Source of the DNA: a virus
Lineage: Duplodnaviria; Heunggongvirae; Uroviricota; Caudoviricetes
Direction: 5' to 3' (one strand)
IMG/VR virus record: IMGVR_UViG_3300020576_001727
Span: 39,062-103,061 of that record
Length of the DNA stretch: 64,000 bases
Positions 6,635 through 43,081 of this stretch are shown here, one piece after another. Position 1 is the stretch's first letter; each line of letters opens with the position of its first letter. A program made the position numbers and the translations under genes. The notes beneath the pieces are model-generated. The model saw only the letters and a list, made by a program, of their open reading frames with translations, made no database searches and had not been told where the DNA came from.

Positions 6635-6825
6635 TTGAACCAAAAGACGTAAAGAAAGGCGAAAGATATATCGATAATAACAACAATGTTATCGAAGTAA
6701 TCGGCGCTGGAAGCGACTCAATCTGCTTTGTGTGGGTGGCAGTCCCTTTTGATATGTTCTTGCAAGGCTGGACCAGTTACGTTCCATTTCTTGATGATAA
6801 CTGGTCCAAACTAGAAAAGCCTTAG
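6631..6825 (+). CDS. Hypothetical protein
   Basis: ATGA overlap. Its stop overlaps the convergent tape-measure stop. Confidence 0.6.
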   Translation: MIEPKDVKKGERYIDNNNNVIEVIGAGSDSICFVWVAVPFDMFLQGWTSYVPFLDDNWSKLEKP

Positions 6826-9800
6826 ACTTCATCGATCTTCGACCAATAGGTAGGCATATTGACAACTCCCGACACATGCGAGTCTCTTGCATTTGCCGGG
6901 TTTTGTCCTTTGCTTTGACGGTTGACGGCGGCAAGGCTTCCGGACATTCTTTTGTGAGTATTGCCTTGGACCGTGCCAACTTTTTCGTCTGGTTTAGGCA
7001 TAGCGGCTCTTGCCCGGGCAACTGACATTTCCCGTTCTTTTTCACGCTGTTTCTTCGCGTTTTCCTCTGTCTCTCTAGCTCGTCTTTCGATATCCTCCTG
7101 TCTAGGCGGAACAAGCGATTCGGCTTCCGTTGCCTTTTTCATCTTGCGAAACAATGGATGCTTTTCTAGTCCTGTTTGACCGGCAACCAATTCAAAATCG
7201 GGAACAAGCTTGCCGTTTTTGTCCAAGCGAAATTTCATCGCAGAAGGCTTCATCTTGACTACATCGGGAGTCGATTTCTTGGCTTCTGTTTCCTTTTTCC
7301 AAGTGGATAGATTGAAGCCGGATCGTTCTTTCCGCCCTTCAGCAGCGGCTTGGGCGACCCAACCATCGCCTTTTCCAGCCGAACCCCATGTTGCCTCTTT
7401 TCCGAAACCAACATGCAAGGTGTTTCCTCCCATATATTCATTACCCGCACCGATGCCGGTTGCTCCTGCTTTAGAAGCATTTCGGACAAAAGCTTGCATG
7501 ACAGCACGATCATCCGGATTGTTGAAATCCAGTTTCTTTCCACCTCGCCACAAGACAAGATCGGCAGCATTTCCATTATCGTGTCGAGTCGATCCTGTTC
7601 TTTTTCCTCGCGTGCCGATTGCATCTTGTCCGCCTGAAGTGACTTCGACCTTATCGATTCCCGATTGGCTTCCCGCATAATTCAGAACGTCTGATAGATT
7701 ATCAGAGATTGGCTTATCTCGGATTTTACCCTGATTGGACATTTGAACGAAAGAATTCGTCATTGGTTTGCTGGGGTTGACAGGATCGAATTTCTTGTTT
7801 GTCGAAATTCGCGCATCCGGATTCAGCAGAGTATCAAAGGTTGATTTGGACTTGTCCGATAGTTGTCCCGGTTGTGTCGCATATTCCTGATTTCGAGCAA
7901 GGTTGGCACGATAAGCGGAATCGATATCCGAAACCGACTTCTTTTGCAAAATCTGCCAAGTCGTATCCATTCCCATTCCCCCCAAACCGGAACGAATGTG
8001 TTCAGTATTGCCCGCTTTCAAATCCTCGTCCAGATTGCGTCCACCTGTTCGTCTTGCATAGTCTTTTTGGGCAAGGAAATAAGCGGCGCTATCCTGATTT
8101 TTTGCACTAAAGTCTGTAATTGGATTGTCTGGATTCTCTCGATTATAGCGACGAACAACGTCCTTCCATGTTGTCTTTGTGAACTGATAGCGTCCAGCCG
8201 CCGTGGAATCAGGAGTTCCGAAGATTTCAGGATGCTTTGACATGTCGGTAAATTTCTTGCCGCCGACAATCGTGTTGTAATCAGGCGATTCCCAATAGTT
8301 TCCGCCCGAAGTGGCATTACCCATTGCCAATGTGTCCAGAAACGCTCTTTGATGAACCGGCAGATTTGTATCAGCAGTCGAAATGACTCTTCCCTTGGCA
8401 TCTGTCAGCATCGAACCCGCGCCTTGACTGATTCCGGCATTTCGACTTTTGACGTTGGTAATGGTCGATTTCACGTCCTTTCCCGGCATCATTGGAGTAT
8501 TGGAGAACAAACGCGCTTCCGTTCTCTTTCTCTGTTCATACTGGCGAGCAATTGTCGAGGAAGGTCCGTTTCTTCCATCATTCTCCTGTCTCGGATCACT
8601 GGTTGAATATCCATTATACGAACCATCATAGGTTGTTCTTGGAGAGAAACCATTTCCTGAATATTGTCCGCTCATCTGTGGAGCAAGATACGTTCCCATG
8701 CCGGTATCGAACCCACCAAACAGACGCTTGTAACGAATGGAATTGGTTGGATTGATATTGTTGTCACCAAATCGATATTCGATATTATTGGACTGTCTCT
8801 TTTGAGGCATGAAATAGAAGGCTGAATCATCCGATGCATTCTGATTGGAGACAGACGGATTCTTGGGAGCGAATCTATTCATTCCATTTAGCATATTCTG
8901 GATTGTAGAAGGCTTGGAAACCGCCTTGTTTGGCTTCAGGAGGCGTCTTGGCTTAGGACCGGGAGTAAGACCTTCCAAAGCAGCCAATTCGCGCTGGTAA
9001 CGCTCTAAATCCTGTAGAGCCTTGGTATAACGGTTATGATATCTCTTTTGCCATTCGGGAGATTGGGACAGATGATAGGAAATGCCTTCACGAAGCACTG
9101 ATATTTTTTGCTTCAATTCAAGGATTTTTTGTTCTTTAATGGCATTATCAGGCTTAAGCATTCGTCTTGGCTTAGGACCGACTTCATCACTTGTTGCCAA
9201 GTTTGGAGGAGTCATTAATGGCGACAAATTAGTTCCGTTGAATTCTCTTTGACGAATGATTCGATCCAGAGAAGTATCACGTTCTCTTTCTTGGGAATGA
9301 CTTGGTGTCTTCTTGATGCCAAACAGCTTTTCCAACCCTTCGCGGTATTTCTTTTGATTTGCTACCTGTTCTTCAAAAGTATCACCGGGAGTATCACCAA
9401 GAGATTGAACACCTAACCCGAAAGAAGCCATCCAAGTAAATGCTCTTGCCATCAACCCAAGTTCCGCTCCGGTTGGCATTTTGAACCCCTTGCCTTTTTT
9501 ATTACCCGGAATGTCTAAATCAGGAAAAAAACTGGTTCCCGACCCTCTTGAAATATTCTTTGATAGTTTTTCCAGCATCTTATGAGTAGTGATACTGTAA
9601 TCAAGCAACTTATTAAGGCTTTTATTAGCCGAATCCAGCTTGTCATCTACTACGGCAATAGCTCTATTCGTATAATTTTGAGGATTGCTTATCTCTGTGC
9701 TGACGGCTTGACGAACTTCTCTTTCAATTTTGTCACCAAGCGCAAAAACGATGATTCTTGCCAGACGTTCAGGAGTGCTTTTTTGCCCCTTTGATGTCCC

Positions 9801-10010
9801 TCCTGCCATTGGTGCGCGTTGAATGGACGATGATTTTCCTGAATGATTGTCTCGCATCTGTTTGACGCGAGAAGACATAGCTTCACGATCGCGCCGAAGC
9901 ATTTCCGCTGCTTCTCTCGCATTTTCATCGATATCTCTCTGTTTTCGATCCTCGATAACGGCTTTCTTTTCGGCTCTTTTGTCGAGTAGGTATCTAAGGA
10001 ATTCGCTCAT
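6822..10010 (-). CDS. Tape measure / baseplate hub (gp29-like) with lambda-type lysozyme and M15-like peptidase domains
   Basis: 1062 aa immediately downstream of gp26/gp51. Lysozyme motifs AFLDTLA...ESPDYNTIVGG...STAAGRYQFTKTTW...NQD. Peptidase motif RHDNGNAADL...LHVGFG. Confidence 0.75.
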   Translation of the reverse strand: MSEFLRYLLDKRAEKKAVIEDRKQRDIDENAREAAEMLRRDREAMSSRVKQMRDNHSGKSSSIQRAPMAGGTSKGQKSTPERLARIIVFALGDKIEREVRQAVSTEISNPQNYTNRAIAVVDDKLDSANKSLNKLLDYSITTHKMLEKLSKNISRGSGTSFFPDLDIPGNKKGKGFKMPTGAELGLMARAFTWMASFGLGVQSLGDTPGDTFEEQVANQKKYREGLEKLFGIKKTPSHSQERERDTSLDRIIRQREFNGTNLSPLMTPPNLATSDEVGPKPRRMLKPDNAIKEQKILELKQKISVLREGISYHLSQSPEWQKRYHNRYTKALQDLERYQRELAALEGLTPGPKPRRLLKPNKAVSKPSTIQNMLNGMNRFAPKNPSVSNQNASDDSAFYFMPQKRQSNNIEYRFGDNNINPTNSIRYKRLFGGFDTGMGTYLAPQMSGQYSGNGFSPRTTYDGSYNGYSTSDPRQENDGRNGPSSTIARQYEQRKRTEARLFSNTPMMPGKDVKSTITNVKSRNAGISQGAGSMLTDAKGRVISTADTNLPVHQRAFLDTLAMGNATSGGNYWESPDYNTIVGGKKFTDMSKHPEIFGTPDSTAAGRYQFTKTTWKDVVRRYNRENPDNPITDFSAKNQDSAAYFLAQKDYARRTGGRNLDEDLKAGNTEHIRSGLGGMGMDTTWQILQKKSVSDIDSAYRANLARNQEYATQPGQLSDKSKSTFDTLLNPDARISTNKKFDPVNPSKPMTNSFVQMSNQGKIRDKPISDNLSDVLNYAGSQSGIDKVEVTSGGQDAIGTRGKRTGSTRHDNGNAADLVLWRGGKKLDFNNPDDRAVMQAFVRNASKAGATGIGAGNEYMGGNTLHVGFGKEATWGSAGKGDGWVAQAAAEGRKERSGFNLSTWKKETEAKKSTPDVVKMKPSAMKFRLDKNGKLVPDFELVAGQTGLEKHPLFRKMKKATEAESLVPPRQEDIERRARETEENAKKQREKEREMSVARARAAMPKPDEKVGTVQGNTHKRMSGSLAAVNRQSKGQNPANARDSHVSGVVNMPTYWSKIDEV

Positions 10011-10240
10011 TTCTTGATCTTCTTAACTATTGATTGAGTGTCTTTCATCGCGTTCATGTGATCGACCATTCGAATGCGGTCTTCTTCCATTTGCACTTTG
10101 ATCAAGTCGGTATAAACCAATCTTTCCCAAGGCATGATATTATCAAGATAATCGATATTGAAACCGTGACTCTTCTGTAGTGCCAGATTGGATTTATAGT
10201 GGTTCAGCAGGTTGTCATGCTGAACCGTTAGACGAAAAAA
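10007..10240 (-). CDS. gp51: gp51-like hub/tail assembly protein with no start codon, the predicted -1 frameshift extension of gp26
   Basis: Reads HDNLLNHYKSNLALQKSHGFNIDYLDNIMPWERLVYTDLI, the gp51 pattern. The first ATG is within the MPWER motif. Not in the ORF track. Confidence 0.8.
   Translation of the reverse strand, partial: FFRLTVQHDNLLNHYKSNLALQKSHGFNIDYLDNIMPWERLVYTDLIKVQMEEDRIRMVDHMNAMKDTQSIVKKIKK
10201..10240 (-). promoter_or_regulatory. -1 programmed ribosomal frameshift signal
   Basis: Slippery heptamer T TTT TTC (10240-10234), 7-nt spacer, and a perfect 9-bp stem GGTTCAGCA/TGCTGAACC with an 8-nt loop (10226-10201). Confidence 0.75.
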
Positions 10241-10950
10241 TCCATTAGACTATCCATCTTGATATGATGTTCTGTGCCACAATTCACGCATTTATGGGTC
10301 TTTTCAATAACCAGATCGGGCATATTCGAAACATAATCAAGTATTTTCTTGAATGTCACTCTGTCCAAATCCAGTATCCATGTCTTGAATTCTTCAAAAG
10401 TAACGTCTTTTCGGCTGAATACTGTCTCGTCGCTATAAACACTTTCCATACTGTAATAGATCGAAGCGATATCCTGATCAATCTCGGAATCGTTTGGATT
10501 GTAATTGAGAGTGGATTCAAACGAAGTAGGCTTTAACTTGATGCCAACGCCTTTGGTGATTTCAATGGTCTTGGTCTTTTCAACTTCGCCGTCCAGTTTT
10601 GCGTCTCTCAAATCGATTGTAATCTCGAATGGAGTATCACAAGACTTTTCGTCCTTGACTGTCTGACAAGTGAAGTTCTGTGCAGCCTTTTCCCCGACCG
10701 ATTTTGATCTTAATGACAAAAGCAGGAAGTCAGCATCGATATTCGAAAGATTGATTACGTCGAAATTCGGTTCAAGCACGCACGCATTCATGACTTGTCG
10801 AGTAGCAGCGGCGACTTGTTTTACATCTTCGGATTGAGCCGCCATCAACAGAATTCGGTCTTCCTTGACTAGGTAGGATCGACATTCGAGTTCTTTTCCA
10901 GATAGTGGTAATTTAACAAAAAATGTTTGAAAGGCAATTTTAGGTAGCAT
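10228..10950 (-). CDS. gp26: Baseplate hub assembly protein gp26
   Basis: N-terminal MLPKI...LPLSGKELECRSYLVKEDRILLMA, then LRSKSVGE, two Cys pairs, and C-terminal DFFV. Confidence 0.9.
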   Translation of the reverse strand: MLPKIAFQTFFVKLPLSGKELECRSYLVKEDRILLMAAQSEDVKQVAAATRQVMNACVLEPNFDVINLSNIDADFLLLSLRSKSVGEKAAQNFTCQTVKDEKSCDTPFEITIDLRDAKLDGEVEKTKTIEITKGVGIKLKPTSFESTLNYNPNDSEIDQDIASIYYSMESVYSDETVFSRKDVTFEEFKTWILDLDRVTFKKILDYVSNMPDLVIEKTHKCVNCGTEHHIKMDSLMDFFV

Positions 10951-11483
10951 TAATATTCCTCTGTAGGTTGCATAGTGAAGTCTGTATAGGTGAATTGAAC
11001 CATTGTTCTCAAAAAGCCATCATCCGCCCATGACAGCGGCAAAGGCATGACACTGACTGGATAGGCTTTCTGAATCACTGTCTTGTGGATGATAGGTCCG
11101 TCATCACGTATTTTTTCGATAGTAATACGTGCTGCATATTCATCACGAAACGCCAGATCGTAAGACCCATTCCCGATTATGTATCGAAACCATTTATAGA
11201 AATAATCTCTCTCTTCCATGTTTTCTTGGGTTAGGAAGGTAAGAGTCAAGTCTGAATAAGACGTGATATTCGGTGTCTTGAACGATGGTCCATAGTAACG
11301 AAAATCCATTGTGTTCAAGGATTGTCCTGCCAATTCAGCATCCGAACAAAGCATCTTTCCACCTTGGGGAAGAGTGCCGATTTCGTTTTGAAGATTGGCG
11401 GGAGGCAATATCAATGTCTGGAATTTAGCGGCTTTGGCTAATCCGCGTCGAAACGAGGAACGGAATTCTTCAAGGTCGGACAT
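10950..11483 (-). CDS. gp54: Tail tube initiator (gp54/gp19-like fold)
   Basis: Tube-family motifs: GLAKAAKF, LCSDAELAG, YYGP..KTP, LTLTF, F.KW. Confidence 0.7.
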   Translation of the reverse strand: MSDLEEFRSSFRRGLAKAAKFQTLILPPANLQNEIGTLPQGGKMLCSDAELAGQSLNTMDFRYYGPSFKTPNITSYSDLTLTFLTQENMEERDYFYKWFRYIIGNGSYDLAFRDEYAARITIEKIRDDGPIIHKTVIQKAYPVSVMPLPLSWADDGFLRTMVQFTYTDFTMQPTEEY

Positions 11484-12081
11484 TGTTCTTCTTTCTCGAA
11501 TCTCTCCATACCTTGGCAGTCGTCGCCTTTTCGAAGTTCTGCAATGGTAGGAACAAAGCGTTTTCCCATTCGTTCGGGAATATCTTGATAAATTGGCTTC
11601 GGACGTGTCCAGCCAGATAACGCTTGACAGTGGGTTGAAAATATTGGCTGAAAGACTTGATCTTTTGATAGCTCAATTTCAGCTTGGTTGTCTGATCGTA
11701 TCTCTTGTTATTAGCGAGCGAACTAAGTTCTCCCAATAGAACGATTCTGCTTTTATAGTCGAGATAATGGAAATTCAGACCTAGAAAGCCATCGTCATAG
11801 ATTTCAATAGGAAAGACCAAAGGAAAGGTGTCATAGTAAGGCAATGTTTTCTTGTGTTTTGGATCATATACAAAGAAATACATGTTTCCGATGACATGAT
11901 TTGAATCTTGTCTTAAAGAGTCTGCCATTAACTCCTGTTTGACTACGCCATGCGCTTTTCTCGAAATTGTTTTCTTGTTTCCGGTCGCAACCAACTTGTC
12001 ATGAAACCATGTCAAGGAACGTCGAGTCTTGTCTCGTAACTGTGAATATGTTTGGTGTTTGTATTTGTCCGGATCGATCAT
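11470..12081 (-). CDS. gp2: DNA end protector protein
   Basis: GNMYFFVYDPKHKKTLPYYDTFPLVF...GLNFHYL. Confidence 0.92.
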   Translation of the reverse strand: MIDPDKYKHQTYSQLRDKTRRSLTWFHDKLVATGNKKTISRKAHGVVKQELMADSLRQDSNHVIGNMYFFVYDPKHKKTLPYYDTFPLVFPIEIYDDGFLGLNFHYLDYKSRIVLLGELSSLANNKRYDQTTKLKLSYQKIKSFSQYFQPTVKRYLAGHVRSQFIKIFPNEWENALFLPLQNFEKATTAKVWRDSRKKNNVRP

Positions 12082-38944: not shown

Positions 38945-40554
38945 CAAATTCAATTCCCCAAGACTTAAAGATATATCATAACAACCAAAATCTTTTGTTG
39001 GCTGGCGAACCTTACAAGTATACCAAGCACGAAATTGACGAGTTCAAGAAGTGCAAGGACAGCTTGCTTTATTTTGTTGAAAACTATTATAAAATCATCG
39101 ACGTTGATACGGGTTTGATACAATTCAAAGCACGTCATTATCAGGAAAAATACCTGAAATTGATGGAAAAAAATCGAAACGTTATTACCAAATGGCCAAG
39201 ACAGAGCGGAAAAAGCACGACTTCCATTGGCTTTCTTTTGTGGTTCCTAATTTTCAACGCAAACATCACTGTTGGTATTCTGGCACAAAAAGCAGAAACC
39301 GCGCAAGAACTTTTCCATCGCCTAAGACTTGCTTATGAACATCTGCCCAAGTTCCTTCAGCCGGGGATTGCCAATGGTGGATGGAACAAGCGTTCTATGC
39401 ATCTAGGCAACGGTTCAAGATGCATCGCTGGCGCGACAAGTTCCGGTTCCGTCCGAGGAATGAGTTTCCGTTGTATTTTCTTGGACGAATTTGCGCACAT
39501 TGAAGATAACGTCGCAGATGATTTCTGGAAATCCGTTTATCCAACAATTTCATCCGGTAAAGAAACCAAGGTCATCATCACAAGCACGCCTAAAGGTTAT
39601 AACCATTTCTATGACATGTGGACCAAAGCCGAAAAGAAACAGACGGACTTTATTCCTATGTCGATCAATTGGAACGATCCGCCCGGAAGAGACGAAAAAT
39701 GGAAACTTGAACAAATTGAAGTATTGGGACCGGCTGGATTCAGACAGGAATTCGAGAGTTCGTTCGAAGGAAGTTCGACTACTCTGATTTCTCCTGACAA
39801 ACTAGTCGAACTTCAAAAAAACGTCATTCCTCCGCTATTCGAATCGGAAGGCTTAAACATTTATGAAAAGCCTATTCCGGGTCATAACTATGCAATTTGT
39901 GTAGATACAAGCCGGGGACAAAATCTGGACTATCACGCCTTTTGCGTTGTTGATGTAACCAATTTTCCTTACAAATTGGTTGGAATGTTCCGACGAAATG
40001 ATATCCATCCTACCATTCTTCCAAACTACATTTTCAATGTTTGGAAACAATACAACTATGCCGCCGTCTTGGTCGAAGTATCGGACATTGGCGCACAGGT
40101 TGCTGACATGTTGGTTGGTGACTTGGATTGCGAAATCATCCGAGTGAGCAACAAACCCGGTAAGGGACAAACGATTGGTATGGGTATTGGTAGCAAAATT
40201 CAGAATGGGTTGAAAACTTCCCCTGCAACCAAGAGAATCGGTTGTGCCGACTTAAAAGCACTAATCGAGACAGACAAACTAATTGTTCAGGACAAAGAAA
40301 CTGTTAAAGAATTCATGTCCTTTGTTGCCGATAATCAAAGCTTTTCGGCAGAAGAAGGAAAACATGATGATTGCGTCATGTCTTTGGTATTGTTTGGTTG
40401 GTTATCTCACCAAAGATACTTCCGTCATGAAAATACAGACATTCGCGCTGAATTGGAAAAACTAAACGAAGAATATCTTGAAAATCAGTTGACTCCTTTT
40501 GGTATTGTTGATGATGGCTTGGATTTTGTTGATGCTTATACGCCTAGATACTAA
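38941..40554 (+). CDS. gp17: Terminase large subunit
   Basis: PRQSGKSTT, GMSFRCIFLDEFAH, STPKG.NHFY, D.SRG...DY, HDDCVM. Confidence 0.97.
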   Translation: MTNSIPQDLKIYHNNQNLLLAGEPYKYTKHEIDEFKKCKDSLLYFVENYYKIIDVDTGLIQFKARHYQEKYLKLMEKNRNVITKWPRQSGKSTTSIGFLLWFLIFNANITVGILAQKAETAQELFHRLRLAYEHLPKFLQPGIANGGWNKRSMHLGNGSRCIAGATSSGSVRGMSFRCIFLDEFAHIEDNVADDFWKSVYPTISSGKETKVIITSTPKGYNHFYDMWTKAEKKQTDFIPMSINWNDPPGRDEKWKLEQIEVLGPAGFRQEFESSFEGSSTTLISPDKLVELQKNVIPPLFESEGLNIYEKPIPGHNYAICVDTSRGQNLDYHAFCVVDVTNFPYKLVGMFRRNDIHPTILPNYIFNVWKQYNYAAVLVEVSDIGAQVADMLVGDLDCEIIRVSNKPGKGQTIGMGIGSKIQNGLKTSPATKRIGCADLKALIETDKLIVQDKETVKEFMSFVADNQSFSAEEGKHDDCVMSLVLFGWLSHQRYFRHENTDIRAELEKLNEEYLENQLTPFGIVDDGLDFVDAYTPRY

Positions 40555-42523: not shown

Positions 42524-43081
42524 ATGGATATCTCTAATTTTCGCGCGATGATGACAGGAGACGGGGCAAGACCTAACTTGTTCCGTATCACTGTCAACCT
42601 ACCGGCTGCTTTGCAAAACCTGAATTCGGGAAATCGATTTGGGGAGAAACTACAGTTTACTGCACGTTCTGCCCAAATTCCCGGCAAGACTATCAGTAAG
42701 GTTCCAACCCAATATATGGGTCGTGAAGTTTACTTCGCTGGAAACCAGATTTTTGCTGACTGGACCATTACTGTTCAGAATGACGAAGATTTTGTTACCA
42801 GACGAGTTTTTGAAAAATGGATGGCGGGCATCAACTCTCACATTTCCAACATTCGTGACTCTCGTTTGCTTGGTCCAAATGATTACGTTGCAGACGCAAT
42901 TGTTGAACATTTGGGTAAGGAAGGTCCGGATTCTATCATTGCCAAATACAAGATGATTGCTCTTTGGCCAACCGATCTTGCTCCAATTGAACTTGATTGG
43001 GGACAGAATGACGTTATCGAAGAATATACGGTAACACTTTCATTCGATACATGGATTTCCGAAGAAGACGGAATTATCTAA
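42524..43081 (+). CDS. gp19: Tail tube protein
   Basis: GARPNLF, YMGR.VYFAG...F..WTITV.NDEDF..R..FEKW, WPT....IEL.W. Confidence 0.95.
   Translation: MDISNFRAMMTGDGARPNLFRITVNLPAALQNLNSGNRFGEKLQFTARSAQIPGKTISKVPTQYMGREVYFAGNQIFADWTITVQNDEDFVTRRVFEKWMAGINSHISNIRDSRLLGPNDYVADAIVEHLGKEGPDSIIAKYKMIALWPTDLAPIELDWGQNDVIEEYTVTLSFDTWISEEDGII

Follow-up and report, generated by a model that had tools for sequence, protein, structure and literature searches.

A predicted -1 frameshift joining a gp26-like tail chaperone gene to a gp51-like extension in an uncultured T4-like phage

How can a coding sequence without a start codon of its own be expressed? The question is raised by a locus in the stretch analysed here, 64,000 nucleotides (nt) of the uncultured tailed-phage record IMGVR_UViG_3300020576_001727 (positions 39,062 to 103,061 of that record; hereafter the window). 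On its minus strand, a gene for a 240-amino-acid (aa) protein related to gp26 of phage T4 is followed, in the -1 frame, by a sequence related to T4 gp51. The original prediction, made from the letters of the window and its open reading frames (ORFs), held that a -1 frameshift fuses the two, in a system equivalent to the G/GT genes of lambda. Comparison with related phages points the same way: we put at roughly 85% the probability that a -1 shift at a conserved run of T residues joins the gp26-like protein to the gp51-like extension, one gene then giving two proteins.

All elements of the junction lie on the minus strand. The gp26-like gene, which defines the 0 frame and would encode the short chaperone form, occupies 10228-10950 and ends in ATG GAT TTT TTC GTC TAA, with the stop at 10230-10228. 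Its product matched Pfam T4_baseplate (PF12322) over residues 11-239 (8.5e-44) and phrog_150 (1.8e-43); identity to gp26 proteins of known phages was only about 30%. Within the overlap of both frames lies the heptamer T_TTT_TTC (10240-10234), in X_XXY_YYZ phase relative to the 0 frame. The -1 frame opens 4 codons ahead of the T-run and, since a TAG at 10252-10250 closes it upstream and the TAA ends the 0 frame, any shift is confined to 10249-10231. From the run onwards (10234-10007), the -1 frame specifies a 75-aa extension corresponding to the C-terminal domain of gp51; it was recovered by tblastn in other phages (see below) and matched phrog_634, 'baseplate hub assembly catalyst' (gp51), at 4.9e-14, only profile positions 58-119 of 121 being covered. 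As had been claimed for the sequence ahead of the conserved motifs, no ATG, GTG or TTG was found in this frame for 33 codons after the run, the first being the ATG at 10135 (codon 34).

The heptamer is followed, after a 7-nt spacer (10233-10227), by a hairpin with a 9-bp stem and an 8-nt loop (10226-10201, in which 10226-10218 pair with 10209-10201), a position within the 5-9 nt downstream interval of stimulatory structures. Its minimum free energy was -16.8 kcal/mol (z = -4.1) and none of 200 shuffled sequences folded as well. A terminator role for this hairpin was ruled out because no T-run comes after it. Gene end, frame, heptamer, spacer and stem were all located where the original prediction had placed them, and the same was true of the anticipated product of about 314 aa. 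The predicted fusion comprises 239 + 75 = 314 aa, reads ...MDFFRLTVQHDNLL..., and closes with a TGA (10009-10007), which forms ATGA with the overlapping ATG (10010-10008) of the gene downstream.

Expression of this tail (baseplate-hub) assembly chaperone gene would yield two proteins sharing their N-terminus. Most ribosomes would end at the TAA and release the 240-aa short form. We infer that the slip is ribosomal and a minority event: a small share of the ribosomes, probably paused at the run by the 9-bp hairpin 7 nt downstream, would shift back by one base at U_UUU_UUC, the P site and the A site both holding tRNA-Phe, read 75 codons in the -1 frame and deliver the 314-aa long form, the putative counterpart of T4 gp51.

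The strongest argument for the fusion is provided by T4-type gp51 itself, because this protein is composed of a gp26-like domain and an extension. T4 gp26 (208 aa) and gp51 (249 aa) are hub assembly chaperones, and both are listed as such in a review of the T4 tail (PMC3004832). The original prediction rightly treated them as products of separate genes in T4; what it did not include, and what has to be corrected, is the composite nature of gp51. In a Mosigvirus, gp51 (250 aa) consisted of a T4_baseplate domain (residues 1-201, 4.6e-59) and a 50-aa tail. A profile of 66 predicted fusions aligned with gp51 residues 114-246 in one stretch and with no gap at the junction, where ...LedFFrlalah... 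of the fusion profile faced ...LEVFKLLVNP... of gp51. The fusion of the window alone also retrieved gp51 by BLAST (1e-7), again across the junction. These alignments show T4-type gp51 and the predicted fusion to be collinear, and the corresponding contiguity is reached in the window only after a -1 shift. Both marks of the T4 gp26/gp51 family were found there, i.e. the T4_baseplate domain and, contiguous with it, a gp51-type C-terminal tail.

Tevenvirinae are organised differently. In a Mosigvirus and a Gelderlandvirus, gp26 ends with GAA TTC TTT followed by two or three sense codons, without any slippery run; gene 25 comes after gp26 and gene 51 lies on the opposite strand. Two separate genes are present in these phages, whereas in the window one gene and a frameshift would do both jobs. 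The complete genome to which the window belongs (a 170,409-bp record with terminal repeats, from an uncultured phage) contains a T4_baseplate domain and a phrog_634 match only once each, and for this reason a gp51-type protein can here arise only via the shift.

Junctions from relatives were gathered from annotated isolates, from 19 viral contigs found through a gp51-internal motif and from 80 viral contigs found through a gp26 alignment; a single gp26 used as query found no related loci, unlike the alignment. Once those more than 90% identical had been removed, 67 junctions were left, originating from cyanophages, uncultured viral contigs and phages of Vibrio, Stenotrophomonas, Rhizobium and Nitratidesulfovibrio. 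The junction itself gave no match by blastn against phage records. With tblastn, the 75-aa extension matched 428 phage records, nearly all from cyanomyoviruses, and each match began at extension residue 1 and ran into the end of the annotated gp26.

A conserved TTTTTT[CT] and covarying hairpins had been named as the features to look for in relatives. The run was indeed general, NNT TTT TTN being present in 67 of the 67 non-redundant junctions with TTC or TTT as last codon in 65 and TTA in two; covariation of the hairpin was seen in one helix class (see below). The codon carrying the first T was AGT in 23 cases, TCT in 16, AAT in 14, GAT in 11, GCT in two and GGT in one (it is ACT in phage BUCT-ZZ01), so that the amino acid varied and the T was fixed. 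The P-site codon was invariably TTT. At the A site, TTC occurred 60 times, TTT five times and TTA twice, the latter replacing the 0-frame Phe by Leu with the motif retained. A single sense codon separated the run from the 0-frame stop in 62 junctions. TTC accounted for only 29% of the Phe codons in the same genes, as against 60 of 67 at the A site, and other in-frame Phe-Phe pairs of gp26 were variously encoded and mostly not slippery. Taken together, the comparison indicates that the motif is kept beyond what the protein sequence requires, by codon choices opposed to the genes' own usage.

The motif extended to the distant Stenotrophomonas phage BUCT608, the KVP40-like Vibrio phage VH7D, Rhizobium phage LG08 and Nitratidesulfovibrio phage SRB7757, as well as to the freshwater cyanophages BUCT-ZZ01 and S-CRM01. 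In P-HM1, S-RIM8 and a further relative, L086, the -1-frame stop directly abuts the T-run, which means that the frame can only be changed on the run itself. The -1 peptide was conserved from its first residues (FFR[LIV]..H..L..Y..NF...MPWE) and could be aligned without gaps from the heptamer on. The base following TTC G was free to vary; it is the middle base of its codon in frame 0 and the last base of an Arg codon in frame -1. Start codons near the junction were sporadic: the first ATG stood at codon 3-4 in 34 of the 67 relatives and later, or much later, in the others.

Signals flanking the run were more variable. Compared with control windows taken within the same genes, the 42 nt downstream formed more stable folds (mean -8.35 vs -4.45 kcal/mol, Wilcoxon P = 2e-7), with z below -2 in 45% of the relatives. 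Their hairpins are lineage-specific in register. The commonest class formed a 10-bp helix with compensatory pairs (GGCUCA/UGAGUC, GGCGCA/UGCGUC, GGCACA/GUGUC), whose covariation exceeded that of all 500 shuffles and of all slid partners. Upstream, GAGG or GGAG started 13-15 nt ahead of the run in 45 of the 67 relatives, compared with 7% of background windows, and the Glu codon at this Shine-Dalgarno-like site was GAG in 41 cases vs GAA in 17, although GAG represented 28% of Glu codons gene-wide. The -1 signal of Escherichia coli dnaX is made of an internal Shine-Dalgarno sequence, a heptamer and a hairpin. Many relatives resemble it in carrying all three parts, with GAGG some 10 nt ahead of the heptamer and a hairpin 5-7 nt behind it, whereas the window displays heptamer and hairpin only. 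As for the run itself, published E. coli data rank U_UU.C second among tetramers in its tendency to shift and place H_HH.U_UU.Y among the most efficient heptamers (PMC4066793).

A frameshift in T4-like tail assembly chaperone (TAC) genes had apparently been published before. Vladimirov, Gautam & Davidson (Virology 2022) are cited for poly-T slippery sequences as known -1 signals in 'TAC-N genes of T4-like phages' (PMC12846349). According to the PRFect paper (PMC10885494), which cites the same work, some T4-like phages do without a frameshift and have one gene for the short chaperone and another, fused one for the long form. As far as these citing passages convey the 2022 content, the window adds an instance and not a principle, since the point seems to have been made there.

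Could the 314-aa protein be made without any slip of the ribosome? If RNA polymerase inserted one additional U at the T6 run in a few transcripts per hundred, the same fusion would result, and several traits of the site are compatible with this: every lineage has a pure homopolymer at this place and none has a mixed heptamer, T7 or T8 runs occurred in five relatives, and UUUUUUU is avoided in genes, possibly owing to transcriptional slippage (PMC4066793). Yet exactly T6 and then C was found in 60 of the 67 junctions, though a longer run would slip better, and the codon phase of the run was fixed. T6 is, moreover, short for efficient transcriptional slippage. The enrichment of GAGG about 10 nt upstream, of a hairpin 5-7 nt downstream and of a stop one codon later is relevant to a ribosome, not to a polymerase. 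Nor does the 'other mechanism' of the 2022 paper speak for polymerase slippage, as it is rendered in PMC10885494 as separate short and long genes. The ribosome is favoured because of the T6-then-C run in fixed codon phase, the downstream structure, the helix covariation and the upstream GAGG/GGAG, and polymerase slippage is considered improbable. We hold it to be less likely still, and indeed very unlikely, that no fusion exists and that the gp51-like ORF is translated alone, starting with the ATG at 10135 (42 aa) or at a non-canonical codon, or reinitiating past the gp26 stop. Separate ORFs of 31-63 aa are what GenBank annotates as gp51, the near ATG of 34 relatives would suit such a product, and an ATG overlaps the gp26 stop in Vibrio phages VH7D and K469 and in Stenotrophomonas phage BUCT608. 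In the window, however, the start at 10135 would sacrifice the conserved first 33 residues, none of these 33 codons being an ATG, GTG or TTG. In the commonest hairpin class the near ATG is buried in the 5' arm of the hairpin, and independent translation would leave unexplained the invariant NNT TTT TTN, an Arg conserved ahead of any ATG and the collinearity with full-length gp51.

The least likely alternative, a homopolymer sequencing error having split one ordinary 314-aa gene, was rejected. Some sequencing chemistries are error-prone at T-runs, but the same two-frame layout was seen in 90 of 90 loci examined, among them cultured isolates from many laboratories, and contigs assembled from four independent runs carried no indel at the T-run. 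Among the contig differences listed, one fell within 10167-10248 (at 10211, in the hairpin loop and synonymous in the -1 frame) and many in the flanks, which is a hint only.

Several observations weigh against a ribosomal frameshift at the run, or at least against its generality. The T6 homopolymer would, as said, let a polymerase slip with the same protein as outcome, and with an ATG 3-4 codons past the junction in half of the relatives, some independent translation of a small ORF is possible there. Relatives having their own gp51 start and no slippery site had been named in the original prediction as evidence against the shift; among the non-Tevenvirinae examined, only Vibrio phage K469 lacks the heptamer, and it shows ATGATG at the gp26 stop. 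About one third of the relatives had no significant downstream structure, and RNAalifold found no consensus structure on the 67 junctions. The window itself departs from the commonest pattern, its stem being one register off the commonest helix class and ATGGATAG standing where relatives display GAGG. The Arg codon in the long form, and not slip efficiency, may be what preserves the C at position 7 of the heptamer. Finally, the compared sequences are related, so that the P values do not refer to independent events.

K469 deserves a separate description. At its locus (1940-2150), gp26 ends with CTT TTT GCG TAA; it was the sole non-Tevenvirinae relative examined without the heptamer. Its small ORF may be translated independently, or a slip may take place on the T_TTT tetramer.

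The parallel with lambda was examined at the level of protein fold. An AlphaFold2 model of gp26 (pLDDT 92.3, pTM 0.86) gave nothing significant with Foldseek against the PDB, the top probability (0.75) being that of 2ob9. In an exhaustive structural alignment against 48,161 chains, the top three were 3fgx (Z 7.9), 3klu (6.9) and 2ob9 (6.9), all on model residues 1-95 and with moderate Z values. Entry 2ob9 is the HK97 tail assembly chaperone, and the three proteins are all described as phage tail assembly chaperones (PMC9603447). A TAC fold of the gp26 N-terminal domain is supported by this modelling. The remainder of gp26 (residues ~90-240) appeared as another domain, in which Cys motifs come in pairs (C95..C103; CxxC 221-224) and for which weak zinc-ribbon matches were obtained in T4-type proteins.

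The gene of the window is predicted to resemble lambda gpG/gpGT (Levin 1993; Xu, Hendrix & Duda 2004) in that a -1 shift, placed shortly before the short ORF stops, yields a short and a long form with a common N-terminus. The gp26 N-terminal domain also shares with lambda a chaperone fold, and its gene likewise abuts the next large tail gene. Unlike in lambda, no tape measure can be recognised in the product of the downstream gene, and the proteins of the window resemble neither gpG nor gpT in sequence; gp26 has double the size of gpG and includes a zinc-ribbon-like C-terminal domain to which nothing in gpG corresponds. The heptamers are different too, G_GGA_AAG in lambda and T_TTT_TTC in the window. 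The view that gp26/gp51 are here the equivalents of G/GT is supported by the invariant heptamer, the homology starting from the junction, the gp51 collinearity, the single gp26-like domain and the TAC fold. Both forms would presumably act as gpG and gpGT do, on the tail-length protein and the tube. In chaperones of this type the tape measure is bound by the short form and the tube protein by the extension, and the virion contains neither form.

In the work of Xu et al. 2004, T4 was reportedly said to have long been regarded as an exception to the rule that long-tailed phages possess a short and a frameshift-extended tail chaperone. The site described here indicates that most T4-like lineages follow this rule and that T4 genes 26 and 51 would be a derived two-gene version. 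Its practical value concerns annotation, gp51 being missing or cut in the GenBank records examined: it was either absent or a short ORF, and none of these records had a joined or ribosomal-slippage coding sequence. It is unannotated in ACG-2014d and appears in BUCT-ZZ01 as a 43-aa 'hypothetical protein'. In most records the annotated gp51 ORFs (31-63 aa) begin with an internal ATG; those of S-SSM7, Sf-CH1a and S-CRM01 begin where gp26 stops. The survey further supplies testable details of the signal, namely the A-site TTC, the upstream GAGG on a non-preferred codon and the lineage-specific hairpins. At the protein level, tryptic peptides predicted for the long form are MDSLMDFFR and LTVQHDNLLNHYK, and the short form would end with MDSLMDFFV; the junction peptide first proposed for mass spectrometry would be cut by trypsin at its Arg.

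The genes on either side bear on the proposed order of tube-like gene, chaperone, extension and tape measure. Upstream, a 177-aa gene (10950-11483, minus strand), whose stop overlaps the gp26 start, matched tail tube family phrog_45 (3.6e-24) and Pfam Phage_TTP_2 (7.7e-7). It is a small tube paralogue; the gp19-like tube gene was found at 42524-43081, beside a probable sheath gene. When the gp19-like tube protein (42524-43078) and the 75-aa extension were modelled as a complex, the score was 0.00, which is evidence neither way.

Downstream, the gene whose ATG overlaps the extension stop (6822-10010, minus strand) encodes a 1062-aa protein that would be a tape measure by position only. BLASTP revealed no similarity to Mosigvirus gp29, and the T4 tape-measure families phrog_1283 and PF25671 had no match in the complete genome, where no gp29 homologue was found either. 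The protein contained a stretch resembling lambda lysozyme (residues 553-644, 7e-8), beyond which Pfam, PHROG and NCBIfam searches on parts of it gave nothing. By eye, a peptidase-like H..D...H region was noticed near residues 800-870. A weak lead came from an Atlas search, in which a T4_Tape_measure cluster stood at rank 26 (score 0.82). It is possible that the 1062-aa protein serves this lineage as tail-length protein. Tentatively, and at rather less than even odds, we propose a scenario with two parts: the slip would be ribosomal and driven by a lineage-variable dnaX-like signal (U_UUU_UUC preceded at about 10 nt by an internal GAGG and followed at 5-7 nt by a hairpin), from which the lineage of the window would have dropped GAGG to lean on an unusually strong hairpin; and the 1062-aa lysozyme/peptidase protein would be the tail-length protein served by the chaperone pair, in replacement of gp29.

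Sequences related or near-identical to window positions 9700-10900 occurred in runs labelled as wastewater, sludge and aquatic metagenomes. Contigs from one wastewater run and from one run labelled only 'metagenome' were mostly 90-99% alike to this region. Rhizobium phage LG08 has the same succession of gp2 (DNA end protector), a small tube-like gene and gp26 as the window (10950-12081, minus strand); cyanophages differ from both in that an unknown conserved gene precedes gp26.

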